Origin: Thermoanaerobaculia bacterium
GTDB taxonomy: Bacteria > Acidobacteriota > Thermoanaerobaculia > UBA5066
Length of the DNA: 64,000 nt
Assembly: GCA_963719225.1 (NCBI GenBank)
Contig: CAVRAY010000001.1
Coordinates: 352,001 to 416,000 of the forward strand
Reading direction: 5' to 3'
A program made the position numbers and the translations under genes. The notes beneath the pieces were generated by a model that did not search any database, was not told the origin of the DNA, and saw nothing but the letters and a program-made list of their open reading frames with translations. Positions 15,234 to 34,455 of the stretch are shown one piece after another. Positions within the stretch are counted from its first letter, which is position 1. Every line of letters begins with the position of its first letter.

Positions 15234-15836
15234 ATGAAGGTCGCGTTCATCGGCACCCACGGCGTCGGGAAAACCACCCTCTGCTACGACCTCGCGGCAG
15301 CCCTGAAGAAGAGGGACCTGACCGTGGAGCTCGTCCGGGAGGTCGCGCGGGAGTGCCCGCTGCCCATCAACCGGGAGACGACGCTCAAGGCGCAGGCGTG
15401 GATCCTCCACACGCAGATCGCCTGGGAGCTGCAGGCCGAGGCGAAGGCGGACGTCGTGTTCTGCGACCGCGCCGTCCTCGACAACTTCTGCTACATGCGG
15501 CGGGCTTTCACGGGCGCCCCCTCCGAGGGCGTCCTCGAGGAGCTCGTGCGAAGCTGGACGAAGACGTACGACGTGCTTTTCAAGGTCCCGATCGTCGGCG
15601 ATCCGCGCTTCGACGGTGTGCGGGACATGGACCTGAAGTTCCAGCGGGAGATCGACGGCTCGATCGGCCAGACTCTTGCCGTCTGGGGCGTTCCGCACAT
15701 TCCACTCGATCCGGCCCGGCGCGGCGAATGGGGAGCGCTCGTCCTCGGGGTACTACTTCCGCGCCTTCGACCACAGGAGCTGCTCTTCCCCGAGCCGGGA
15801 GAGCGCCTCGCCACCACGGGAGCTGCCGATGCCTGA
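15234..15836 (+). CDS. P-loop NTPase/kinase (AAA_28/NadR-C-like)
   Basis: 'MKVAFIGTHGVGKTT', 'EVAR', 'FCDRAVLDNFCY', 'YDVLF', 'DGVRD'. Confidence 0.8.
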   Translation: MKVAFIGTHGVGKTTLCYDLAAALKKRDLTVELVREVARECPLPINRETTLKAQAWILHTQIAWELQAEAKADVVFCDRAVLDNFCYMRRAFTGAPSEGVLEELVRSWTKTYDVLFKVPIVGDPRFDGVRDMDLKFQREIDGSIGQTLAVWGVPHIPLDPARRGEWGALVLGVLLPRLRPQELLFPEPGERLATTGAADA

Positions 15837-16763
15837 AACGACGTCCCTCGGCGTGAACGAACGCGCCCGCAATCTCGAAACGCTCGCGTCCACGCCCGCC
15901 GCCCTCAAGGCTGCCCTTCGCGGCGTCCCCGCAAGCTTCTTCTCTTCGCGCCGGCGCCGGGCAAGTGGTCGATCCTCGAGATCCTGTGCCACCTGCGCGA
16001 CATGGAGCGCGAGGGATATCTCGAGAGATACACGCGCATCCTCGCCGAGAACGAGCCGCGCCTTCCCGACCTGAACGGCGACGCGCTCGCGATCGAGCGG
16101 GACTACCGGGCGCAGAAGGCGGGAGACGTCCTGCGCGACTGGATGCGCCTGCGCCGCGAGAGTCTCCGGCTCCTGAAGAAGTCGAAGCCCGAGCAGTGGC
16201 GGCGCGCCGGCATTCACGAGACGGCGGGCCGGCTCACGATCGACGACCTCGTCGTCCGGCACGCGGTCGGGAACGACACGGCTCACCTGGCCCAGATCGA
16301 CGCGATCAAGCGCCGGGCGGCGATCCTCGGACGGCTCTCCGCCGCTCCCGCGGCGCTCGCGGAAGCCCTCAAGGGCGTGGCGGACGACGTCGTCCGGCGC
16401 CGCCCGCCGACGGGAAAGTGGTCGATGGTCGAGAACGCGGCGCACATCCGGGACATCGAGCGTGTCTACCAGGAGCGGTTCTCGAAGATGGCGTTCTCAG
16501 ACCGTCCGGCGTTCTGGATGCTGGACAACGACCGCGCCGCGGCGCAGCTGAAATACGGAGAGTCCGATCCGGGGACCGTCCTGAAGGAGTTTCGGCGGCT
16601 CAGGGAGGACACGCTCCTCCTCCTGCGCGCGCTGCCCGATACGGCGTGGCGGCGCACAGGACTGCACCCGAAGCGCGGCGAGCTGACGGTCGAGCAGCTC
16701 GCGGAGGTGCTCGCGAGCCACGACGACAGCCACATTGGAAGGATCCGCGAGCAAAAAGGATAA
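15829..16763 (+). CDS. Tandem DinB-family protein (one apparent frameshift near 15935-15950)
   Basis: N-terminus 'MPETTSLG...LASTPAALKAALRG' lies in a different frame from 'PAPGKWSILEILCHLRDME'. Second DinB repeat: 'GKWSMVENAAHIRD...HDDSHI'. Confidence 0.8.
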
Positions 16764-16771
16764 GGTCGCCC

Positions 16772-16801
16772 TTGACATATCAATATTAGTTGATATATAT
16801 T
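16772..16801 (+). promoter_or_regulatory. Sigma70 promoter overlapped by an ArsR-type operator
   Basis: TTGACA at 16772-16777 and TATATT at 16796-16801. Palindrome ATATCAA-N6-TTGATAT at 16777-16796. Confidence 0.8.
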
Positions 16802-16807
16802 GCCGCC

Positions 16808-17202
16808 ATGGCAGGACCAGCCATCCCGGCTAGGAGATTCCGAGAAAGACTTGATGTGGGACGCCTTGCGCGGCTGTTCCATGCGCTTTCGGACGAGACA
16901 CGGCTGAAGATCGTCGAGCGGCTGCTTAGCGGTGAGCAGTGCGTCTGCAACCTCATGGAACCACTAGGTTTAGGGCAATCTCATCTGTCGTTTCACATGA
17001 AGACCCTGAAAGACGCCGGGCTTGTGACCGATCGCCGAGCCGGTCGTTGGATCCACTATTCACTCAAGCCGGGAACCCTCGAGGAGATTCAGGAGTTCCT
17101 CGGGACGGTCGGGAAAAGGCCGCCCAGCTGGAGGCGGCACGGTGCTGCGAGAAGGATAAGAAAGAGTCGCCGGGACAGCTTTATGGTTTCTCTATCTTCT
17201 AA
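16808..17202 (+). CDS. arsR: ArsR/SmtB repressor (apparent frameshift near 17110)
   Basis: 'LFHALSDETRLKIV...EQCVCNL...QSHLSFHMKTLKDAGLV...GRWIHYSL'. An alternative frame supplies the C-terminal 'AARCC' vicinal Cys pair. Confidence 0.85.
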
Positions 17203-17203
17203 G

Positions 17204-17221
17204 AATCAAAAAATCTTGATT
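17204..17221 (+). promoter_or_regulatory. Second ArsR-type operator upstream of arsM
   Basis: AATCAA-N6-TTGATT, with the same ATCAA-N6-TTGAT core as the operator at 16777-16796. Confidence 0.7.
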
Positions 17222-17235
17222 GAATGGAGCCTGCC

Positions 17236-18059
17236 ATGTCAGAAACGAACCTGAAGGACATCGTGAAGGAGAAATACGGCGAGGCCGCCAAGCGCGCGTC
17301 GACGGGCGGCAGCGCTTGCTGTGGAGGGGCTTCCGCGATCGCCGGGGCGAAGGATCCCATCACGTCGAATCTCTACGGCGCCAACGAGACGCTCGGCCTT
17401 CCCTCCGCGGCGGTCTCGGCTTCTCTCGGCTGCGGCAATCCGACGGCGCTCGCCGAGCTCCATGAAGGCGAAACGGTCCTCGACCTCGGCTCGGGCGGCG
17501 GCATCGACGTCCTGCTGTCGTCGCGGCGCGTCGGACCCGCGGGGAAGGTCTACGGCCTCGACATGACGGACGAGATGCTCGCGCTCGCGCGGGAGAACCA
17601 GGGGGGCGCGCGCGTCACGAACGTGGAGTTCCTGAAGGGCGAGCTCGAGAACATTCCCCTTCCCGACGGGAGCGTCGACGTCATCATCTCGAACTGCGTC
17701 ATCAACCTCTCGGCCGACAAGGACCGCGCCCTGTCCGAGGCGTTCCGCGTCCTGAGGCCGGGCGGCCGGTTCGCGGTCTCCGACGTCGTCGTACGCGGCG
17801 CGGTCCCCGTGGAGGTGCGCCGCGAGCGTCGAGCTCTGGATCGGCTGCCTCGCCGGCGCACTCGAGGAGAAGGAGTTCGACGCCAAGCTGACGAAGGCCG
17901 GATTCGACCGGCGTCGAGATCGTCCCGACGCGCGTCTACGACGTCGACGACGCGCGCGACTTCCTCGCGGCGGCCGGAATCGATGCGGACGCGCTCGCTC
18001 CCCAGGTGGACGGGAAGTTCATGAGCGCGTTCGTGAGGGCCACGAAGCCGGCTGCCTGA
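17236..18059 (+). CDS. arsM: Arsenite S-adenosylmethionine methyltransferase (two apparent +1 frameshifts, ~17824 and ~17909)
   Basis: 'SACCG', 'SLGCGNP', 'LDLGSGGGID', 'ISNCVINL'. 'LWIGCLAGAL' and 'FMSAFVRATKP*' continue in shifted frames. Confidence 0.9.
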
Positions 18060-18068
18060 GGCCGAGCC

Positions 18069-19136
18069 ATGGGAACCTTCGAGCGCTTCCTCTCGCTCTG
18101 GGTCGCCCTCTGCATGGCGGCGGGCGTCGCGCTGGGCACGCTGTTTCCGGGCGCAGTTGCCGCGCTGCGCGGGCTGGAGCTCGGCGAGGGAAGCCACGTG
18201 AACGCGGCGATCATGGTCCTGATCTGGCTCATGGTCGCGCCGATGATGGCGAGGATCGACTTTCCGGCCATTCGCAACATCGGGCGGGAGCCGCGCGGGC
18301 TCGCCGTCACGCTCTTCGTGAACTGGCTCGTGAAGCCGTTTTCGATGGCCTTCCTCGCCTGGCTCTTCTTCCGGCACGCCTTTGCCGCGTGGATCGCCCC
18401 CGCGGTGGCGGATCAGTACATCGCCGGAACGATCATTCTCGCCGCAGCGCCCTGCACGGCGATGGTCTTCGTCTGGAGCGCGCTCACGCGCGGCGACCCG
18501 GCGTACACCCTCGTCCAGGTGGCCCTGAACGACCTCGTGATGCTCGTGCTGTTCGTCCCGATCGTGCGCTTCCTCGTGCGCGGGGCGTCTTCTCTCGAAG
18601 TCCCGATGCGCGTGCTCGTCACGTCCGTCGTCGCGTTTCTCGTCGTCCCGCTCGCCGTCGGAATCGTGTTACGTGCGTGGGCCATCGCGCGGCGCGGAAA
18701 GGTCTGGCTCGAAGGCACGCTGCTGCCCCGGCTCGCGCCGGTCACGGTCGCCGCGCTCCTCCTGACGCTCGTCGCCATCTTCGCGTTCCAGGCGGACAAC
18801 GTGCTGGGGAAGCCTCTTCACGTCGTCCTCATCGCGGTTCCCATCCTGCTGCAGGTCTACTTCAACTCGGCCCTCGCCTACGGTCTCATGAAGGCGGCCG
18901 GCGTCAGGCATGCGATCGCGGCCCCGGGCGCGCTCATCGGCGCAAGCAACTTCTTCGAGCTCGCCGTGGCCACCTCGATCGCGCTTTTCGGGCCCGAGTC
19001 GGGAGCCGCTCTCGCAACCACCGTCGGTGTTCTCGTCGAGGTGCCCGTCATGCTCTCCGTCTGCGCCGCGTGCAACCGCACGCGCGCCTGGTTTCCGGCT
19101 CCCGGCATGGCCCATGCGGCCGGAGGCCCCCTGTGA
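18069..19136 (+). CDS. acr3: Arsenite efflux transporter Acr3
   Basis: 'FERFLSLWVALC', 'NWLVKPFSM', 'APCTAMVFVWS', 'GASNFFELAVA', 'GVLVEVPVML'. Confidence 0.95.
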   Translation: MGTFERFLSLWVALCMAAGVALGTLFPGAVAALRGLELGEGSHVNAAIMVLIWLMVAPMMARIDFPAIRNIGREPRGLAVTLFVNWLVKPFSMAFLAWLFFRHAFAAWIAPAVADQYIAGTIILAAAPCTAMVFVWSALTRGDPAYTLVQVALNDLVMLVLFVPIVRFLVRGASSLEVPMRVLVTSVVAFLVVPLAVGIVLRAWAIARRGKVWLEGTLLPRLAPVTVAALLLTLVAIFAFQADNVLGKPLHVVLIAVPILLQVYFNSALAYGLMKAAGVRHAIAAPGALIGASNFFELAVATSIALFGPESGAALATTVGVLVEVPVMLSVCAACNRTRAWFPAPGMAHAAGGPL

Positions 19137-19543
19137 AAGCCCGAGGACTCCTCTTCCTGTGCGTCGCGAACTCGGCTCGAAGCCAGATCGCCGAGGGACT
19201 CGCCCGCGCGCGCTTCGGGGACGCGGTGCGCGTCCAGAGCGCCGGCTCGGACGCCGCGGGCGTGAACCCGCTCGCGGTGAAGGTCCTGGCGGAGCTCGGC
19301 ATCGACATCTCCTCACAGGCCTCCAAGACCGTCGATACGATCGATCCCGCGACCGTCGACACGGTCGTCACCCTCTGCGCCGAGGAGGTCTGCCCGGTCT
19401 TCCTCTCGAAGGCGCGGCACCTCCACTGGCCTCTTCCGGACCCGACGGCCGGAGGCGGAACGGAGGAGGAGCAGCTGGAGCGTTTCCGCCGGACGCGGGA
19501 CGAGTTGAAGCTCCGAATCGACTCGTTCGCGATTCTTACTTGA
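19133..19543 (+). CDS. arsC: Arsenate reductase, LMW-PTP/thioredoxin type
   Basis: GTG start overlapping the acr3 stop; 'LFLCVANSARSQIAE', 'TLCAEEVCP', 'HWPLPDP'. Confidence 0.92.
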   Translation: MKARGLLFLCVANSARSQIAEGLARARFGDAVRVQSAGSDAAGVNPLAVKVLAELGIDISSQASKTVDTIDPATVDTVVTLCAEEVCPVFLSKARHLHWPLPDPTAGGGTEEEQLERFRRTRDELKLRIDSFAILT

Positions 19544-20622
19544 CGATCTGATAGACGAGCGCGCGAGGAGCCCGCCACCGGCAGCGTGACGAGCCACGCG
19601 AGGAGCATCTCGCGGACGGTCCGCCACTGGATCCGGCTCTCCTTCGACTCGGCCCCGATCCCGATGATCGCCCCCGAGGACACGTGCGTCGTCGAGACGG
19701 GAAGCGCCCAGAAGGAAGCGGCGCTCACGAGCGCGCGAGGTCGTGAGGTTCGCGAGGAGGCCGTCGTCGTGGCCGATGCGTGTGACCTTTCGCGCGAGCG
19801 TCTCCGTCACGCGGAAGCCCCCGAGGAAGCTGCCGAGGCTCATCGCCACGGCGACGAGCGCGTAGAACCCGAACGCGCGAGATGCCGAAACCGGCCGTCG
19901 CCGCGATGCCGAGAGCGAGGATCTTCGGCGTGTCGTTGAGCCCGCGGAAGAAGCTCGTCGCACCCGCCGAAGTCCAGTGCAGCGAGTCGAGGAGCGCCCA
20001 CGCGCACAAGCGTCTCGGGCGGGCAGTCGGATGAGGCGACGAGGTCCAGCGTGGGGAGGGGAGACGCGAACGCCACGCCGGCCGCCGCGGGAACGGGCTC
20101 CCGCCGCTCGACGCAGACGCAGAACCGGTGCGCGCGGCGAAAGACGGGGAGAACGGCGGGCGCGAGGAGCAGCACGATCGCGGCGGAGATCACGGGCGAG
20201 AGCGCGAGCGGCAGCGCAACCTTCTTCGCGACCGCCGCCCAGGCGACGCCCGGGGCGCCCGACGCGGCGAGACCGGCGCCGCAGAGGGCGCCCGGCAAGC
20301 GCATGCGTCGTCGAGACGGGAAGCCCCGTGCGGGTCGCGAAGAGAAGCCACCCGATCGCGCCGCAGGCGACCGAAAGGAGAAGAGCGTTGCCGCTTCCGG
20401 CGGATTCACGAGGAGCCCCTTGCCGCTGAAGGTCGCGACGAGTCCCTGAGAGAAGAATGCGGCCACGAGTCCTCCCGCGAGCGTCCACGCCGTGCCCCAC
20501 GCGACCGCGGTCCGGTACCTGGTCGTTCCCGAGCCGACGAGCGTTGCGATGCCCTTCGACACGTCGTTCGCGCCGTTCGCGAACGCGAGGCCGAGCGTCA
20601 GGAGAACGAGGACGACGCCCAT
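19536..20622 (-). CDS. PiT-family inorganic phosphate transporter (about 6 frame switches)
   Basis: 'FANGANDVSKGIATLVGSG', 'GLPVSTTHAL', 'GLNDTPK' and 'LPVSTTHVSSGAIIG' are spread across several frames. The ATG overlaps the upstream stop; reconstructed TAA at 19536-19538. Confidence 0.8.
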
Positions 20623-23120
20623 CAACAGCAGCTCGTCCCGTCGGCGCCCGGCGCGCAGCACGCGTAACCGGCGCGCTCTTCACCCGGCTCGAGGATCGCG
20701 AAGAAGCCCTGGTACGGGGGATGCGAGAGCTTCGCGACGGTGTCGGTGCAGATTTCGTAAGGCTCGTTGCGCGGGAACTGGTGACCCTCCTCGTCGACGA
20801 AGGCCTTGCCAGGCCCGAGGTAGACGGCGCGATGGCCCTGGAAGACGCAGCCTGAGGTCTTCTCGAACTTGAAGCCCCGTACCGTGACGGAGAAGAAGGG
20901 ATATCCCTCGACGTCCTTCCAGTAGCTCTTTTTCAGGATCTCGAGGCCGTAGAACCCGGCGCGTTCGAGGCCGGCGAGGAAGCCCTCCTGCGTGAGCGCG
21001 CCTACGAGGCACTCGCCCCACAGCCGCGGGTTCGTCTTGAGGTGCGGCGGCACGTCCTCTTCCGAGACGATGTCCGAGATCACGATGCGCCCGTGATCCT
21101 TCAGGACACGCCAGATCTCCTCGAAGACGCGCGGCTTGTCGGGCGAGAGGTTCACGACGCAGTTCGAGGTGACGAGGTCGACGGTTTTCGATTCCACGGG
21201 GATCTTCTCGAGGAACCCTTCGCGGAACTCGACGACGTCGTATCCGAGCGCCGCGGCCACGATCGGCTTGTTCTCGTGCGCGACCGCCAGCATCCGGTCC
21301 GTCATGTCGACGCCGATGGCCTTCCCCGTTCCTCCGACGAACTTCGCCGCGATGAAGACGTCGATGCCCGCCCCCGAGCCGAGGTCGACGACGGTCTCGC
21401 CTTCCCGGATTCCGGCGGTCGTCATGGGCGAGCCGCACCCGTAGAAGCGGTCGATCACGTCCTTGGGGATGTGGGAAACCGCCGCGTCGTCGTATTTCGT
21501 CGGGCAGCACAGCTCGGGCTGCGGCGTCTCGGCCGCGGCGCCGTAGAACTCGCGCATCTTCGCGCGCGGCTTGTCGACGTCGAACGAGAGGACGCAGTTG
21601 GAATGAAGCGTCAGCACCGCCTTCTCGGCGAGCGTTCCGTCGGCGGTTCCGCAGGCGATCGCGCCTTCTCCCATCGCATGGAGGACGAGCGGCGCGTCGT
21701 ATCCGGAACGCACGTTCCGCCGTCCTCTCTTCTCGCGGCCGAGGTCGGTCATGACCCTCTTCGTGAGCGCGACGGAGATCGGGTAGTAGGGATCGTCGCC
21801 GAGGAAGTCTCCGCCGGAGAAGCACCACGCGTGCTCGAGATCCCCGCCGCCCGTGAAGAAGCGGAAGGGATCGCCGTTCATCGACGGCTTCCGGGCGAGC
21901 GTGGCGGCCCGAAGCGTCCTGACGATCGGCGACGTTTCGAGGACCTCGCGAAGATCCTGCCGCGAGACGTCGCCGCAGACGAGCGCCGGCTCGTTCGCGA
22001 GGGCCGCGGTCGGGTAGACCTTGCCGTCCGCGTACACGCAGATCGAGTCCCAGCCGGCGTTTCCGAGGTCGTACTTGACGCCCGGGACGCCGTTCACGCG
22101 GCGCTTGATCGCCTCGAGGTTGTCGAGCGTGGTTCCCTCGCGTGCCGCGGCATCCGCGACGGCGAGAACTGCCTTGAGGAGAAGGACGTTCTCCGGAAAG
22201 AAGCCGTTTCCGCTCTCGAGCGCACGGCCGCGCCGGTGGCTCCACATGAGGTGCTGGCTCTTCGCGCCGACGCGCTTGACGAGGGCGGGGATCTCGACGA
22301 GCTCGGAGAGGTTCTCCTCGGTCGTGACCGTCGTCAGGGAGACGTCGAAGCCCATGTCCGCGAGGAGCTTCGCGCCGTCGAGAGCCTTCACGAACGTGCC
22401 GCCTCCGCGGATCGGGTCGTTCGTCTCCGGGCGCGCGCCGTCGAGGGAGACCTGGAACTTCACGCGGGAACGATCGAGCGATTCGAGGCCATTCTTCACG
22501 GCGCCCACGAAGACGGTCGCGTTCGTGAGGACGATCATCTCGGCCCCGTGGGTCTCGGTGGCGCGCTTCGCGAGATCGAAGAGATCCTTCCTCAGGAACG
22601 GCTCCCCGCCCGTGACGTAGAGGCGTTCCATCCCGAGCTCGGCCGCGCGGTCGACGAGCTTCGCGAGGGCGGCGGGATCGATGCCCGGCGCGCCGCCGGG
22701 CCCCGACGAGACGAGGCAGTGCGTGCAGGTGAGGTTGCAGGCGTTGTTGATCTGCAGCCACAGCTCCCGAAGTCCCGACGGCTCGATGAGAGCGGCGCGG
22801 CCGGGGTATGGCGCCCGGGCGAACGGGGCGTCGTGCAGCATGCCCGCGCGGTCGAGGGCGCGGAGGAAGCCGTGGACGTGGACCCATGCCTTCCCCGCCT
22901 CGAGCTGGTGATCCGCGGCCCAGCGCGCGACGCAGGTTCCGAACGCGAGAGGCGCGCCGGCCTCCTCCGCGGTCCGAATCGCGCTGAGCAGCTCTCCGCC
23001 GCGCGCGTCGACGGCGATCCAGTTCGGCGCCTCGGGGTCGACGGCATAGAGGACGTCGTCCTCGGTGAACGTGTGGAACGCGGGCAAGTGGAGCGGAGTC
23101 CGCTCCGCGAGAACGGTCAT
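20622..23120 (-). CDS. Radical SAM / ArsM-like methyltransferase fusion protein (832 aa)
   Basis: GGAGG RBS. CNLTCTHC and TGGEP radical SAM motifs, then ArsM motifs 'LCCP', 'FYGCGSP', 'DLGSGAGID', 'SNCVVNL', 'WGECLVGA'; ends 'YACC...TSCC'. Confidence 0.9.
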   Translation of the reverse strand: MTVLAERTPLHLPAFHTFTEDDVLYAVDPEAPNWIAVDARGGELLSAIRTAEEAGAPLAFGTCVARWAADHQLEAGKAWVHVHGFLRALDRAGMLHDAPFARAPYPGRAALIEPSGLRELWLQINNACNLTCTHCLVSSGPGGAPGIDPAALAKLVDRAAELGMERLYVTGGEPFLRKDLFDLAKRATETHGAEMIVLTNATVFVGAVKNGLESLDRSRVKFQVSLDGARPETNDPIRGGGTFVKALDGAKLLADMGFDVSLTTVTTEENLSELVEIPALVKRVGAKSQHLMWSHRRGRALESGNGFFPENVLLLKAVLAVADAAAREGTTLDNLEAIKRRVNGVPGVKYDLGNAGWDSICVYADGKVYPTAALANEPALVCGDVSRQDLREVLETSPIVRTLRAATLARKPSMNGDPFRFFTGGGDLEHAWCFSGGDFLGDDPYYPISVALTKRVMTDLGREKRGRRNVRSGYDAPLVLHAMGEGAIACGTADGTLAEKAVLTLHSNCVLSFDVDKPRAKMREFYGAAAETPQPELCCPTKYDDAAVSHIPKDVIDRFYGCGSPMTTAGIREGETVVDLGSGAGIDVFIAAKFVGGTGKAIGVDMTDRMLAVAHENKPIVAAALGYDVVEFREGFLEKIPVESKTVDLVTSNCVVNLSPDKPRVFEEIWRVLKDHGRIVISDIVSEEDVPPHLKTNPRLWGECLVGALTQEGFLAGLERAGFYGLEILKKSYWKDVEGYPFFSVTVRGFKFEKTSGCVFQGHRAVYLGPGKAFVDEEGHQFPRNEPYEICTDTVAKLSHPPYQGFFAILEPGEERAGYACCAPGADGTSCC

Positions 23121-23169
23121 CGCCAACCTCCTGGAACTTCGCGGGGGTTTCTCGTGCGGGAGAGGGGCT

Positions 23170-23862
23170 TCAGGCGGCGGCCGGGGCGGGAGGGGCGCGC
23201 GCGGGCGCGACCGGGCGGAACCCGTGGGTGAACGCCGGACGGACGCGCGCGGGAGGGGCGGGGACGGGACGAAGCGAAACGAGGAGCGTCGCGAGCGCGG
23301 GATCCAGGTCCGGCCCCGACGCGAGCACCGCGAGGTCGGACGGGCGATCCACGTCGAGGAGCGGGTCCAGCAGGGCCGCGCCGGGCGCGTTGCGGAGGAG
23401 AGCCCAAAAGACGCCCGCCGTCCGCCACGGCACTTCTTGGAAGAGTCCCGAAAGGTCGGTTGCCGCGCGCGACCCGATCAGCCAGACGCCGCCGTCCGGG
23501 GACGGGCCGAGCACGATCTCCCGCGTTTCGAGCGCGAGGAAGGCGGCGGCCAGCTGCGCTTCGCAAAGGCCGGGGACGTCTCCCGGCACCGCGACGATCT
23601 CCGAGTAGCCGCGCGCGCGCGCGTCCTGGAAGGCGTTCTTCAGGCGTTCGCCGAATCCGCGGCCGCGCTGCGGCAGGACGCTCGCCCGTTCGTGCGAGAG
23701 GCCTTCACCCGCGACGACCAGGTCGACTCCGAGAGTCCGCGTCACGTCGGACACGCGCCGCATCGAGAACGCGAAGAGCCGGCCGCCGCCCGGCATTCTC
23801 TTCATCGCCCCTTCGCGGAGAGGGGACCTCGAAAACAGCAGGACGCACCGGGATGGGCTCAC
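23170..23862 (-). CDS. DUF2064/TIGR04282-like glycosyltransferase
   Basis: 'QRGRGFGERLKNAF', 'VPGDVP', 'VLGPSPDGGVWLIG', 'VPW', 'DVDRPSDL'. Confidence 0.85.
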   Translation of the reverse strand: MSPSRCVLLFSRSPLREGAMKRMPGGGRLFAFSMRRVSDVTRTLGVDLVVAGEGLSHERASVLPQRGRGFGERLKNAFQDARARGYSEIVAVPGDVPGLCEAQLAAAFLALETREIVLGPSPDGGVWLIGSRAATDLSGLFQEVPWRTAGVFWALLRNAPGAALLDPLLDVDRPSDLAVLASGPDLDPALATLLVSLRPVPAPPARVRPAFTHGFRPVAPARAPPAPAAA

Positions 23863-24062
23863 GTGTCTGACTTCTGAATGCTAATACGACCCTCCCGCAT
23901 TCCCCGGATCATGTGGACGGGATCTCCGTCGCGGGGGGGCGGGCCTCCCTCAGCCCTACGGCTCTCTGATTTTTCCGCGGATTCTGAAACCTTTTCGGAC
24001 CGATTGCGTCTTCTTTCTTGAAGCGAGGCCCCCGGGGGCGGAAAAAGGTGAACGAGGGAATC

Positions 24063-32156: not shown

Positions 32157-33650
32157 TCACACTCCCGCGGGAAGCACCGACTCCGACCGCAAAGGCGCGG
32201 CGCCGCCGTCCGCGGGACGCGACAGGAGGCGGCGCCGGAACTTCAGGTGCCTTTTCCGGGTGGCCTCCACGAGCGGTCCCCAGACCGTGTGGACGAGGCC
32301 GTGCTTGATCAGGACGTGCCAGAGCGCGTTCGATCGCTTGTAGAGCCACGACATGGCGAGGTACGGGAGCACGGCCCGCGCCTCTTCGGGCCGGCGCCGC
32401 CAGATGGAAGCCGCGGAGAAGAGCCGCTCGTAGAGCCACGCGTATCCGCGCTCGAGCTCCTCGGGCGACATGTGCCGCGGCCGGAAGACGGCGTGTGCGG
32501 TGTCGTAGAGGTCCCAGTTCCGGTGCAGCAGCCGTCCGCCCGCCTCCATCGTCCGAAAGAGCGGAGTCCCGGGATACGGCGTCAGGATGTGAAACGTCGC
32601 GCACTCGAGCCGGTTCTCCTCGATCCACTCCGCGGTCCGCGCGAAGACGTCGCGCCGGTCCCCGTCGAAGCCGAGCACGAAGCTGCCGTTCACCTGGATG
32701 CCGTTCGCGTGGAGAAGGCCCACGCGCCGCGCGTAGTCGTCCGCCCGGGGAGTCTTCTTGCGCGCCTCGGCGAGGTTCGCGTCCGTGAGCGACTCGAGGC
32801 CGATGAAGACGCCGGTGCATCCGGCGAGGGCCATCTCGCGGACGAGCGAAGGGTCGTCGGTGACGTCGAGCGTCACCGCCGCGCTCCAGATGCGCCCGAG
32901 CGGACGGAGCCCCCGGCAGAGCGAGCGAAGGTAGTCCGGGCGCGAGCCCAGGTTGTTGTCGACGAAGACGGCGTACGGCTGTCCGCCCTCCTCGAACTCG
33001 CGCGCGACCTGCTCGACGTCGCGCACGTGGTACGGCATGCGCAGGCCCCGCGTCGAGAGATAGCAGAAGCCGCAGCGGTTGTGGCACCCACGCGTGGCGA
33101 TGAGGCTCGTGGACGTGAGGAAGCTCCGGCGCGGCACGAGGTCGCGCCGCGGGGCCGGGTCCTCCCGGTAGGGACGCTCGTAGTCCGCGTCGTAGCGGGG
33201 CGCGAGGCGGCCCTTCTCGATGTCGTCCAGGATCCGCGGCCAGAGAGCCACGCCGTCGCCGACCGCGAGGGCGTCGGCGTGCGGCGCGGCCTCGTCGGGA
33301 CAGGAAAGGACGTGAAGCCCGCCGAGGATCACGGTGGATCCGCGCGCCCGGTACCAGTCCGCGAGGGCGTAGGCGCGACACGCGAAGGTGAGATGCACGG
33401 TGATGCCGACGACCTCCGGAAGAGGATCCCAGGGCGGGCGGCCTCTCAGGAGGTTCTCGTCCCAGAGGGCGACCTCCCAGCCGGGAGGAGTCGCCGCCGC
33501 GACGCTCGTGAGGGCGAGCGTGGGCGTCAGGACGTGCTTGCCGAAGCTCGCGTGCGGGTCCTTCGGGTAGAAGGGGTTCACGAGGAGGGCGTGGCGGCGC
33601 TCGAGGCGGGACGCTGGAAGAGCCGGATCGAGGGGAGGCGCGATCGCCAT
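32157..33650 (-). CDS. Cobalamin-binding radical SAM protein
   Basis: B12-binding-like region ('VGITV', 'ILGGLH'), CHNRCGFC, 'FVDNN', 'FIGLES', 'ILTPYPGT'. Confidence 0.88.
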   Translation of the reverse strand: MAIAPPLDPALPASRLERRHALLVNPFYPKDPHASFGKHVLTPTLALTSVAAATPPGWEVALWDENLLRGRPPWDPLPEVVGITVHLTFACRAYALADWYRARGSTVILGGLHVLSCPDEAAPHADALAVGDGVALWPRILDDIEKGRLAPRYDADYERPYREDPAPRRDLVPRRSFLTSTSLIATRGCHNRCGFCYLSTRGLRMPYHVRDVEQVAREFEEGGQPYAVFVDNNLGSRPDYLRSLCRGLRPLGRIWSAAVTLDVTDDPSLVREMALAGCTGVFIGLESLTDANLAEARKKTPRADDYARRVGLLHANGIQVNGSFVLGFDGDRRDVFARTAEWIEENRLECATFHILTPYPGTPLFRTMEAGGRLLHRNWDLYDTAHAVFRPRHMSPEELERGYAWLYERLFSAASIWRRRPEEARAVLPYLAMSWLYKRSNALWHVLIKHGLVHTVWGPLVEATRKRHLKFRRRLLSRPADGGAAPLRSESVLPAGV

Positions 33651-33702
33651 TTCGCGAGGCACGCGGAGCCGGCGAGGCCGCGAGGCGAAGGGAGCGTCGG
33701 GG

Positions 33703-34455
33703 TCAGAGAGAGCCGGCACTCGGAGCCTCGTTCCCGGAGGCAACGGGAGGCCCAGCGGAGGAAAGCCCTCCGAACCGGCGCTCGCGTTTTCGATAGCGCC
33801 GCACGGCGTCGGCCAGATCGGGGCCGCCGAAGTCCGGCCACATGCGGACGGTGAAGAAGAGCTCCGCGTAGGCGACCTCCCAGAGGAGGAAGTCGCTGAG
33901 GCGGCGCTCGCCCGCCGTCCGGATGAGGAGATCCACGTCCGGAGCCTGGTTCGCCGGGCCGTAGGCGGCCCCGAGCCGGGCCGTGAAGCTCTCGCGCGTG
34001 AAGGGCTGGAAGGGCGGGTTCTCGCACGCGCGAAGGATGGCGTCCTGCGCGGAGTAATCGACCGCGAGGCGGAGGAGCAGGGAAGTCCCCCCGGCGGTGG
34101 CGCCTTCGGCCGCCCGGATGGCGTCGGCGAGCGCGTCCGAAATCCGGTCACGGCGGCCGATGACGGAAAGCCTCACCCCCTTTTCGACGAGAAGAGCGGC
34201 CTCCTTTTCGAGGTAACGCTGGAAGAGACCCATGAGAGTTCCGACTTCTTCCGGCGGGCGCTTCCAGTTGTCGGAGGAGAAAGCGTAGAGCGTGAGAGTG
34301 CCGATTCCGAGGGCGGGCGCGGCCTCGACCGTCCGGCGTACCGCCTCGGCCCCGGCTCGATGGCCGGCGACACGCGGCGCGCCGCGCGCAGCCGCCCAGC
34401 GTCCGTTGCCGTCCATGATGATCGCGACGTGAAGACGGACGCTCTCGTTCGCCAT
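33703..34455 (-). CDS. uppS: cis-prenyltransferase (undecaprenyl diphosphate synthase)
   Basis: '[13 protein letters not shown]', '[11 protein letters not shown]', '[17 protein letters not shown]', 'RRFGG'. Confidence 0.93.

Follow-up and report, generated by a model that had tools for sequence, protein, structure and literature searches.

Organization of the locus

A gene that joins a radical-SAM enzyme to an arsenic methyltransferase and faces an arsenic resistance operon raises the question of whether both units form one organoarsenical pathway, and what chemistry the fused enzyme performs. In the window analyzed here, a 64,000-nucleotide stretch from an uncultured Thermoanaerobaculia bacterium (Acidobacteriota), arsR, arsM, acr3 and arsC on the plus strand converge on the genes of a DUF2064 protein, a radical-SAM–ArsM fusion and a PiT transporter on the minus strand (Table 1). 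We confirmed all seven genes in the order and orientation given by a preliminary description, together with the TGATG overlap between the fusion stop and the PiT start (20624-20620, minus strand).

Table 1. Features of the arsenic locus in the window
Feature	Positions	Strand	Remarks
Sigma-70-type promoter, TTGACA-18-TATATT	16772..16801	+	1 found against 0.2 expected
arsR, ArsR/SmtB repressor	16808..17202	+	CVC motif, C-terminal CC; one frameshift near 17110
arsM, short resistance-type arsenite methyltransferase	17236..18059	+	Frameshifts near 17822 and 17906
acr3, arsenite efflux transporter	18069..19136	+	Intact; TIGR00832
arsC, LMW-PTP-type arsenate reductase	19133..19543	+	Intact; PF01451
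PiT/PHO4-family transporter	19540..20622	-	Five small insertions break the frame; 3' end approximate; PF01384
832-aa radical-SAM–ArsM fusion	20622..23120	-	Intact frame
DUF2064 protein, divergent TIGR04282-like subfamily without KTRL	23170..23862	-	PF09837, 79 bits
ECF-sigma-type promoter motif TGATCC-N17-CGTAT, upstream of the DUF2064 gene	23884..23911	-	

In the plus-strand unit, Acr3 (TIGR00832, 357.9 bits, cut-off 282.8) and the operon ArsM (NF008823, 282.2 bits, cut-off 263) exceeded their model cut-offs, while ArsC contains the LMWPc domain (PF01451) but fell below TIGR02691 (132 bits, cut-off 174). A 7-6-7 palindrome at 16777-16796 overlaps the promoter ahead of arsR, is the sole genome match at no more than two mismatches, and resembles boxes preceding arsR/arsM in loci L016, L017, L018 and L046; judged by its sequence, it is likely the ArsR operator. 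An operator of this type was found at the ars promoter only and not before the minus-strand cassette, and ArsR control of the cassette was rejected on this search. The ars operon is an ordinary resistance operon, separately controlled, that shares the variable "arsenic slot" of the genus.

The ECF-type motif ahead of the DUF2064 gene is kept in L016, L017, L018, L046, L152, L153 and L264, and the genome holds 9 such sites against 1 for the reversed pattern. As a general feature of the cassette it was discarded: it is not enriched over 88 loci (12 against 7.6 expected) and is conserved in near kin only. A promoter motif of this type is common to the cassette and a bufferin cluster. ChrR had no match in the genome.

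Compared with relatives, the frames of arsR, arsM and PiT are broken (Table 1; in PiT at 19735, 19877, 19995, near 20294 and at 20395). The extra letters at 17906, 19735, 19877, 19995, 20291 and 20395 are missing from the contigs of close relatives, so that the breaks represent assembly errors or private lesions. Decay of the cassette in the window strain, or the lack of any arsenic role there, is hardly credible. The flanking genes of L016 and L017 outside the slot do align unbroken, except at the start of dinB, as decay of the broken frames would have it, but the breaks are grouped in one stretch, and the frame of the fusion is unbroken, with identities of up to 91% to homologs of full length.

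The first piece of the PiT transporter matches PF01384 with 56 bits, where an intact ortholog reaches 207 bits; compared with the unbroken 360-aa L017 ortholog, the pieces show 73-96% identity. The gene upstream of the fusion had been called a glycosyltransferase. Its product scores 90 bits against TIGR04282 (cut-off 134) and lacks the N-terminal KTRL motif, which is present in 7/7 canonical TIGR04282 rows and 0/11 divergent rows, and we reassign it as a divergent DUF2064 protein. The one relative with a solved structure, 3CGX, is a putative transferase, and a literature search found no papers using the term DUF2064. No TIGR04283 gene lies in the locus; the host genome's own TIGR04282 and TIGR04283 copies are located amid housekeeping genes.

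The radical-SAM half of the fusion

The fusion consists of an RRE-like N-terminus, a radical-SAM core with cluster residues C128/C132/C135 (CX3CX2C), a SPASM region, a Cys tail, a three-domain ArsM and a C-terminal CC. Its structure model reached a pTM of 0.91, with ArsM/AS3MT as the top fold matches. The fusion announced in the preliminary description is present and intact, but its radical half is neither ArsS nor ArsL. It scores 61.8 bits against the ArsS model TIGR04167 (cut-off 300), shares just 27% identity with ArsS over 175 aa, and lacks the tail motif HCxxCTAGxGSxC present in 18/18 ArsS tails examined; a profile search found no ArsS over the cut-off in the host genome. In radical-SAM trees under two models, ArsS fell on the fusion's side; its branch is very long, and the trees did not establish kinship between the two (AU p=0.149). 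ArsL was rejected as well, since NF040542 gave no match to the fusion at E up to 0.001, the three weak matches in the genome exclude it, and the C-terminal CCXXC (RCCLKC) motif is missing.

By sequence and by fold, the N-terminal half is closest to CteB (5WGG), SkfB (6EFN) and PqqE (6C8V). Its RRE-like N-terminus aligns by profile with the N-termini of SkfB and CteB; Pfam PqqD matches basal relatives, not the first 104 residues of the window protein. The auxiliary-cluster ligands are lost: at positions 371, 414, 417, 423, 427 and 446, no more than 3-10 of 123 rows have a cysteine. YPC has become YPT/S, GGGC has become GGGD, DPYC has become DPYY and the CxxC is gone, and H290, D351, D427 and H430 are new invariant residues in place of the SPASM ligands. 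The loss of these cysteines fits an ArsS-type reaction, because that reaction is redox-neutral and an auxiliary cluster is not needed. No recurring precursor peptide gene was found near 86 loci; one bufferin-type precursor occurs, in L018 only.

Related radical-SAM enzymes are repeatedly fused with ArsM, at either end, and also with DUF2064. In basal relatives the fusion partner is TusA or a methyltransferase other than ArsM, so the radical-SAM clan is not arsenic-only. Relatives also show a neighbouring TauE gene and a tail with Cys/Sec.

The ArsM half and the cysteine tail

The ArsM half is a class I methyltransferase with the whole three-domain ArsM fold. Its cysteines C538/C539, C562, C654 and C704 are kept in 90-117 of 123 rows, and the four ArsM positions are all present, as in the four-conserved-Cys rule stated in the accessible part of PMC8552651. 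Because of this full CmArsM/AS3MT fold and the four cysteine positions, the half is predicted, with high confidence, to make MAs(III)/DMAs(III). It falls below NF008823 (232.6 bits, cut-off 263) and reaches 201 bits with the ArsM model of the arsinothricin pathway, more than the 157 bits with the arsenosugar ArsM model NF038099 (below the cut-off of 400).

The locus does carry two different ArsM domains, as had been noticed: those of the fusion and the operon share 46% identity over 145 aa and fall into separate clades. In the ArsM tree, which left out L084 and the NF038099-type ArsMs of L133 and L136, the operon orthologs cluster with short ArsMs, and the fusion domain joins long ArsS-adjacent ArsMs (SH 99), away from the resistance type. 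In metagenome loci, 12 of the 15 stand-alone long ArsMs have arsS in the same locus; the scan with long-form members gave mostly plain ArsM loci and 4 family members, and 10/80 of the loci were without gene calls.

In the tail between the two halves, C490 is kept in 117/123 and C509 in 118/123 aligned sequences. The C509 position is TGA in one stand-alone relative; the hairpin 3' of the TGA in L014 has an ordinary folding energy (z -0.77), which gives no independent support for Sec.

The chromosomal slot and the recurrence of the cassette

The slot, bounded by dinB on one side and by conserved flanking genes on the other, was compared in 11 congeneric genomes. It holds the fusion cassette in G000, G611 and G667; arsS with TIGR04169 in G154, G572 and G659 (both over the cut-off for G154); and a short radical-SAM enzyme with DUF2064 and an ABC transporter in G635, G095 and G246 (one flank seen for G095 and G246). 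A phosphoesterase accompanies the short enzyme in G635 and G095. In G639, arsM-arsC occupy the slot and arsS lies elsewhere, while in G619 the contig with the fusion could not be assigned to a position. The fusion and ArsS occur together in 0/11 of these genomes. Because ArsS sits at the same chromosomal spot in close relatives, the fusion likely makes carbon-arsenic compounds by an unstudied route.

In a wider set, ArsS was found in 1/50 fusion genomes (50 of 80 loci examined). Among 151 genomes of the class, 25 carry the fusion family, 42 carry ArsS and 3 carry both (p=0.04, with kin not independent); the ~830-aa form, a split chosen after seeing the data, has ArsS in 0/18 (p=0.002, again with kin not independent). 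ArsS is present in 2/8 fusion genomes of a phylum sample, so the exclusion is not strict, and among 201 Gemmatimonadota genomes the overlap of 0 between ArsS (18/201) and the fusion (14/201) is no better than chance.

The fusion family comprises at least 893 proteins at E up to 1e-20, and the DUF2064–fusion–PiT/Pst arrangement recurs in six phyla, among accessory genes of the ArsS cassette. Our survey of homolog neighbourhoods upheld the accessory genes but not the linkage to resistance. The association of the three genes exceeds what chance would give: DUF2064 lies immediately upstream of the fusion in 32/84 loci with enough flank, and PiT or PstS within 1.3 kb downstream in 37/72, whereas ars resistance genes appear in the fetched flanks of only 7/88 loci. 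In the 47 loci with both flanks of at least 5 kb, acr3 occurs in 3, all close kin, and 8 are without any accessory gene. The 7/88 count and the G667 cassette, which fills the slot without an ars gene, rule out a general linkage to ars resistance genes.

Gene sets around ArsS and the fusion correspond closely. L142 has the order TIGR04282-like | ArsM, ArsS, PiT, VTT, MerA-like, TIGR04283-like; in L043 the fusion replaces ArsM and ArsS and is followed by PiT, MerA-like, VTT and both transferases, and the gene set of L043 surrounds the fusion in L095. TIGR04283 is present in 44/50 fusion genomes against 98/293 others, but both transferase families are unspecific, as ArsS and the fusion are both absent from 58/105 Acidobacteriota with TIGR04283. 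The survey supports an organoarsenical role of the fusion, as well as the coupling of the fusion gene to DUF2064 and to a transporter of the phosphate type.

Proposed pathway and alternatives

We lean slightly toward a reading in which the fusion substitutes for ArsM plus ArsS, methylating As(III) and then adenosylating it; all functional steps are predicted from sequence. The transporter, PiT or in some genomes PstSCAB, probably either lets arsenate in or serves phosphate, its linkage being observed and its substrate and direction assumed; that arsenate is imported is somewhat less likely than not. As(V) would then be reduced by ArsC or another reductase (other cassettes have a thioredoxin or a flavoprotein of the MerA-like type), and ArsC is not a fixed part of the cassette. 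Methylation by the ArsM half would follow, and the semi-flexible tail may hold the trivalent methylarsenic with C490/C509 at the radical-SAM barrel, by analogy with the C-terminal Cys of ArsL. SAM cleaved at CX3CX2C would give a 5'-dAdo radical and, from it, a methylarsinoyl-adenosine, DDMAA or a monomethyl analogue. That the fusion forms some radical C-As bond is rather probable; that the product is an adenosyl compound falls just short of probable. DUF2064 may tailor the product, although glycosyl transfer by this protein is unlikely and unsupported.

The slot swap with arsS, the L043 and L095 gene sets, the near-exclusion of ArsS, the frequency of TIGR04283, the grouping of the ArsM domain, the repeated radical-SAM/ArsM fusions and the kept C490/C509 all argue for the ArsM-plus-ArsS substitute. 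Against it stand the low identity to ArsS, the missing tail motif, the trees that did not establish kinship with ArsS and the peptide-maturase folds closest to the radical half, as well as the unspecific transferases, the incomplete exclusion, the basal relatives with other partners, the loci without accessory genes, the cassette promoter without an ArsR operator and the broken PiT. The maturase folds, together with the RRE-like N-terminus, the TusA fusions, the TauE neighbour, the Cys/Sec tail of relatives and the ECF-type promoter common with the bufferin cluster, would suit a radical half acting in cis as maturase or redox partner of its own Cys tail, the ArsM domain or an S/Se carrier, with arsenic chemistry limited to detoxifying methylation. 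We consider this quite unlikely, given that the auxiliary-cluster cysteines are gone, a conserved precursor peptide was not found near the 86 loci, and the swap with arsS would be left unexplained.

A carbon-arsenic bond might also be formed in a product unlike that of ArsS, for example by ArsL-type aminocarboxypropyl transfer or by joining arsenic to a DUF2064-supplied nucleotide or sugar. The scaffold unrelated in detail to ArsS, the four residues replacing the SPASM ligands and the preference of the ArsM half for the arsinothricin model favour such a product, but this reading is improbable: ArsL and its tail motif have no counterpart in the fusion, no ArsQ-like exporter is among the annotated recurring neighbours, and the context swaps involve ArsS. 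Very unlikely, in our view, is the single pathway of the preliminary description, in which the seven genes would form one arsenic-induced import, reduction, methylation, radical and glycosylation route with dedicated self-resistance. The two units do adjoin here and in L017 and L046, arsM-arsC continue into TIGR04169-arsS in G659, and arsC follows PiT on the same strand in L084, so that ars genes have been repeatedly recruited to the slot. However, the rarity of ars genes and acr3 near the fusion, the ars-free G667 cassette, the convergent units with different promoter types and the divergent DUF2064 protein all speak against it.

Two radical-SAM enzymes, ArsS and ArsL, are known to form C-As bonds according to the accessible part of PMC12159101. 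We think it rather unlikely, though bolder, that a peptide-maturase scaffold without auxiliary clusters is the third, with the Cys/Sec tail as a cis arm moving methylarsenite from ArsM to the radical site to give a new organoarsenical. If so, the fusion and the short Rv1681-like enzyme of the slot would give soil bacteria of several phyla two further, so far unrecognised ways of making C-As natural products. If the fusion substitutes for ArsS, arsenosugar-type chemistry extends far past ArsS-positive genomes, and part of the soil "arsM" genes would be biosynthetic, not detoxifying. With three enzymes alternating in one slot, the genus lends itself to a natural comparison, and the proposal is testable with one intact gene, SAM and arsenite.

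Comparison with known systems

No published account of the fusion came up in a literature search whose reach did not extend to most subscription papers, the primary ArsS papers among them. The plus-strand unit is an ordinary member of the arsR-arsM-acr3-arsC resistance operons, differing in that two genes are frameshifted in the assembly. CmArsM, CrArsM and AS3MT share with the fusion the three-domain fold (about 33% identity, E 4e-22) and the four Cys positions; in the fusion, however, ArsM sits behind a radical-SAM enzyme, and the first Cys site is CC where CrArsM has one Cys. The RRE/SPASM maturases CteB, SkfB and PqqE have auxiliary-cluster cysteines, whereas the fusion lacks these and a precursor peptide and is joined to ArsM. 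The arsinothricin pathway (arsQML; NF040542, NF040538) likewise partners a radical-SAM enzyme, ArsL, with ArsM and has a Cys tail, an arsenic ligand in ArsL; in Burkholderia gladioli, pitA lies near the arsinothricin locus, as the accessible text of PMC8552651 has it.

In the arsenosugar system, whose accessory families are TIGR04282, TIGR04283 and TIGR04169, ArsS converts DMAs(III) to DDMAA, according to the accessible parts of two reports (PMC13598754; 10.64898/2026.04.29.721666). ArsM plus ArsS are two polypeptides where the window has one fusion, and the scaffold of the fusion is of the RRE/SPASM type. Both combine an arsenic methyltransferase fold with a CX3CX2C radical-SAM enzyme bearing a Cys/Sec-containing tail, both are accompanied by PiT, VTT, MerA-like, DUF547, DUF3047 and TIGR04282/04283 genes, and both occupy the same slot in congeners.

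Gene Layout and Frame Breaks

The seven genes lie where the preliminary description had placed them, with the ars operon facing the minus-strand cassette (DUF2064 gene, fusion and PiT gene), and the coupling of the last two cassette genes by a TGATG overlap was likewise borne out. Six extra-letter sites of the window are absent from the contigs of relatives, and flanking genes from two relatives align to the window unbroken, except at the dinB start. The frame breaks in arsR, arsM and PiT are probably assembly errors. Judging by how its close homologs are named, the host is Thermoanaerobaculia-like.

Features of the window and of related loci (plain coordinates, window; G000, the genome carrying the window; L-numbers, gene loci of relatives)
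Feature	Position	Strand	Remark
arsR	16808-17202	+	frameshifted versus relatives
arsM	17236-18059	+	frameshifted versus relatives
acr3	18069-19136	+	
arsC	19133-19543	+	
DUF2064 gene	23862-23170	-	
Radical-SAM-ArsM fusion, 832 aa	23120-20622	-	intact
PiT gene	start 20622	-	start overlaps fusion stop (TGATG); frameshifted versus relatives
Variable slot in genus	16745-23985		
Tandem DinB-domain gene and AAA_28 gene	15829-16763	+	constant left flank of slot in genus; apparent DinB-domain frameshift near 15930
Further radical-SAM gene, probably B12-binding type	32160-33800	-	unrelated to cassette; adjoins undecaprenyl-diphosphate-synthase-like gene
Stand-alone fusion relative	L014:8781-8807	-	ends LPST-TGA-V at C509 site; TauE gene precedes
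Long form of fusion	L171:8855-11878		then TIGR04283-like gene, DUF547, VTT, MerA-like gene
Short Rv1681-like radical-SAM enzyme, ~295-330 aa	L153:5115-6793, L152:14000-14644, L264:9266-10947, L056:2230-3938, L245:877-3733		usually with metallophosphoesterase
Four-repeat BufA2-like precursor gene	L018:6608-6997		directly upstream of DUF2064-fusion-PstSCAB cassette, one Holophagales genome
ECF sigma gene and bufferin cluster (L252, L253)	G000:C1:2793735-2794937 and C1:2955019-2957254		same motif as cassette; likely anti-sigma partner of ECF gene; BufA2 and BufB over cut-off
TIGR04283-like gene	G000:C1:2751069-2751797		148 bits, partial match; beside moa genes, far from cassette
Canonical TIGR04282 gene	G000:C1:2512750-2513457		147 bits; housekeeping region, far from cassette
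Row of three radical-SAM and two DegT-like aminotransferase genes	G000:C1:1659000-1666400 (L103:4355-11414)		adjoins integrase-like gene; families named by sequence appearance only

The Fusion Family

Scoring of 7,989 candidates put at least 893 proteins in the fusion family at E ≤1e-20, and the top 120 share 72-91% identity with the fusion. Of 598 stretches recovered from 39 of the 64 genome-collection parts, 578 were relatives. In the confidently predicted model of residues 4-832 (pLDDT 92.7, pTM 0.91; softer at about 484-523), the C-terminal half matches the entire fold of CmArsM, CrArsM and AS3MT, with all four ArsM cysteine positions retained. CX3CX2C is invariant in the family, and H290, D351, D427 and H430 are invariant or almost so (123 rows). 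Within the linker, C490 is kept in 117 and C509 in 118 of these rows, and a third Cys at position 507 appears in basal relatives (7/123). Several basal relatives terminate exactly at the C509 position. The stand-alone relative in L014 has a TGA aligned to C509, followed by a conserved Val, with selA present in its genome; judged by sequence, it is likely an unrecognised selenoprotein.

When 30 of the 150 representatives were scanned for alternative fusion partners, we found ArsM at either end, DUF5714, DUF2064, GT2, TusA and another methyltransferase. In long forms of about 1000-1080 aa (P0135, P0156, P0163, P0168 and that of L171), ArsM is followed by an additional Cys-rich linker and DUF5714.

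No General Link between the Cassette and ars Resistance

Genes were called and clustered in 88 loci (the window plus 7 and 80 relatives) from Acidobacteriota, Gemmatimonadota, Chloroflexota, Planctomycetota, Nitrospirota and Omnitrophota, and cluster representatives were annotated. Neighbors were counted by tblastn with markers drawn from the same loci, a sample with many short contigs and over-represented kin: TIGR04282-like 42, PiT 35, VTT 23, MerA-like flavoprotein 16, DUF547 13, TIGR04283 11, PstS 6, DUF3047 6 and DUF3179 5 (one representative, L030, from an unpublished genome), with arsR 5, arsM 5, arsC 4, acr3 3 and arsA/arsD 2. PiT or PstS stands behind the fusion in 37 of the 72 loci with a downstream flank; PstS replaces PiT in six loci, together with PstCAB where the contig allows, and twice stands behind a porin-like gene. 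Among the 47 loci with both flanks of at least 5 kb, 39 hold an accessory gene and 3 hold acr3; a general link of the cassette to ars resistance was rejected.

Eleven congeners were compared at the slot; for 8 of them both flanks were covered, for 2 a single flank. The fusion cassette occurs in G000, G611 and G667, and TIGR04169-arsS occupies the slot of G154, G572 and G659, in the last directly behind arsM-arsC. The slot of G635, G095 and G246 holds arsM or arsC, a DUF2064 ortholog, a PhnS-like ABC transporter and a short radical-SAM enzyme, to which G635 and G095 add a phosphoesterase. G639 has arsM-arsC in the slot and arsS elsewhere; in G619 the fusion lies at a contig end, not placeable relative to the slot. 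None of the 11 congeners has fusion and ArsS together. Radical-SAM modules swap for one another in the slot, and resistance genes enter and leave it independently of them, which is the strongest new evidence both for an ArsS-like role of the fusion and against an obligatory self-resistance unit. G667, whose cassette occurs without any ars gene, also counts against the earlier idea of dedicated self-resistance. The short Rv1681-like enzyme, found in the same slot or cassette as fusion and ArsS and accompanied in the genus by the PhnS-like transporter, is a candidate third module.

Relation to ArsS across Genomes

In L142 the order is ArsM-ArsS-PiT-VTT-MerA-like-TIGR04283-like, and in L043 the fusion replaces ArsM-ArsS ahead of the same genes. 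Across 20 ArsS loci, ArsM adjoins ArsS in 5 and TIGR04169 is found in 11. The two ArsM domains of the window do differ, as described at the outset: in a FastTree tree sampled by likeness to long-form fusions, that of the fusion clusters with long stand-alone ArsMs (SH 99), apart from the ars-operon type. In metagenome loci, arsS shares the locus with 12 of 15 such long ArsMs, and in L245 one shares a cassette with the short Rv1681-like enzyme.

Among 50 fusion genomes, 1 had ArsS and 44 had TIGR04283, against a background of 58 and 105 in 301 Acidobacteriota. A class sample of 151 genomes held the fusion family in 25, ArsS in 42 and both in 3, these three having longer or stand-alone forms. 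However, the phylum sample includes 8 fusion genomes, and the presence of ArsS in 2 of these counts against exclusion, and in 201 Gemmatimonadota (ArsS 18, fusion family 14) the lack of shared genomes is within chance. Neither ArsS nor fusion occurs in 58 of the 105 TIGR04283-positive Acidobacteriota, which counts against a specific link. Unpublished genomes (G313, G340, G049, G024, G447, G530 and G658) enter the co-occurrence and neighborhood tallies; no conclusion rests on them alone.

The supposed glycosyltransferase gene is present in the cassette, but its product belongs to a divergent DUF2064 subfamily (29 of 52 rows, SH 99) without KTRL. Members of this subfamily are encoded ahead of the fusion, but also next to ArsS (L133) and together with the short radical-SAM module.

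Regulation

In front of arsR, a strong sigma-70-type promoter carries a 7-6-7 palindrome, for which the genome offers no second match. Counterparts occur upstream of relatives' ars genes; none was found before the cassette. Upstream of the DUF2064 gene lies TGATCC-N17-CGTAT, kept in seven related loci. The genome has 9 sites of this pattern, whereas the reversed control has 1. One of the other sites lies ahead of an ECF sigma factor gene and another ahead of a bufferin bufA2-bufB cluster; several of the rest fall within genes. The consensus is similar to the RpoE/ChrR one of Pseudomonas syringae (PMC5507510, available part), but ChrR had no match in the genome. From these motifs, the cassette likely belongs to a predicted ECF stress regulon.

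Proposed Mechanism and Comparison with Known Systems

Our scheme builds on the observed anatomy, fold, conserved residues, context and arsS swap of the fusion. The ArsM half would very probably methylate arsenic, and the Cys/Sec tail may bind it by analogy with the ArsL cysteines (10.64898/2026.04.29.721666, available part); its two thiols would suit MAs(III). The radical-SAM half would, on balance, form a C-As bond, most simply by adenosylation as by ArsS. ArsS adenosylation is redox-neutral (PMC13598754, available part), and an auxiliary cluster would be unnecessary. The weakest steps of the scheme are the glycosyl transfer proposed for DUF2064 and the arsenate import proposed for PiT.

We found no description of the radical-SAM-ArsM fusion in the literature searched, and a genome-mining supplement of the primary ArsS papers could mention the family; the fusion is absent from the available parts of PMC12159101, PMC13077682, PMC13598754, PMC13188914, 10.64898/2026.04.29.721666, PMC8552651 and PMC5507510.

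A search with the ArsL model excluded the fusion as an ArsL. Nor is it an ArsS, scoring 62 bits against a cut-off of 300, with 27% identity over 175 aa and without the ArsS tail motif. The nearest matches to its N-terminal half are SkfB, PqqE and CteB, but the SPASM cysteines are mostly gone from the family, with Cys at the six compared positions in only 3-10 of 123 rows. The adjoining plus-strand unit is an ordinary ars operon. The fusion cassette is real and conserved, and represents an apparently undescribed variation on the arsenosugar-type cassette, from which it differs in having one non-orthologous fused enzyme.
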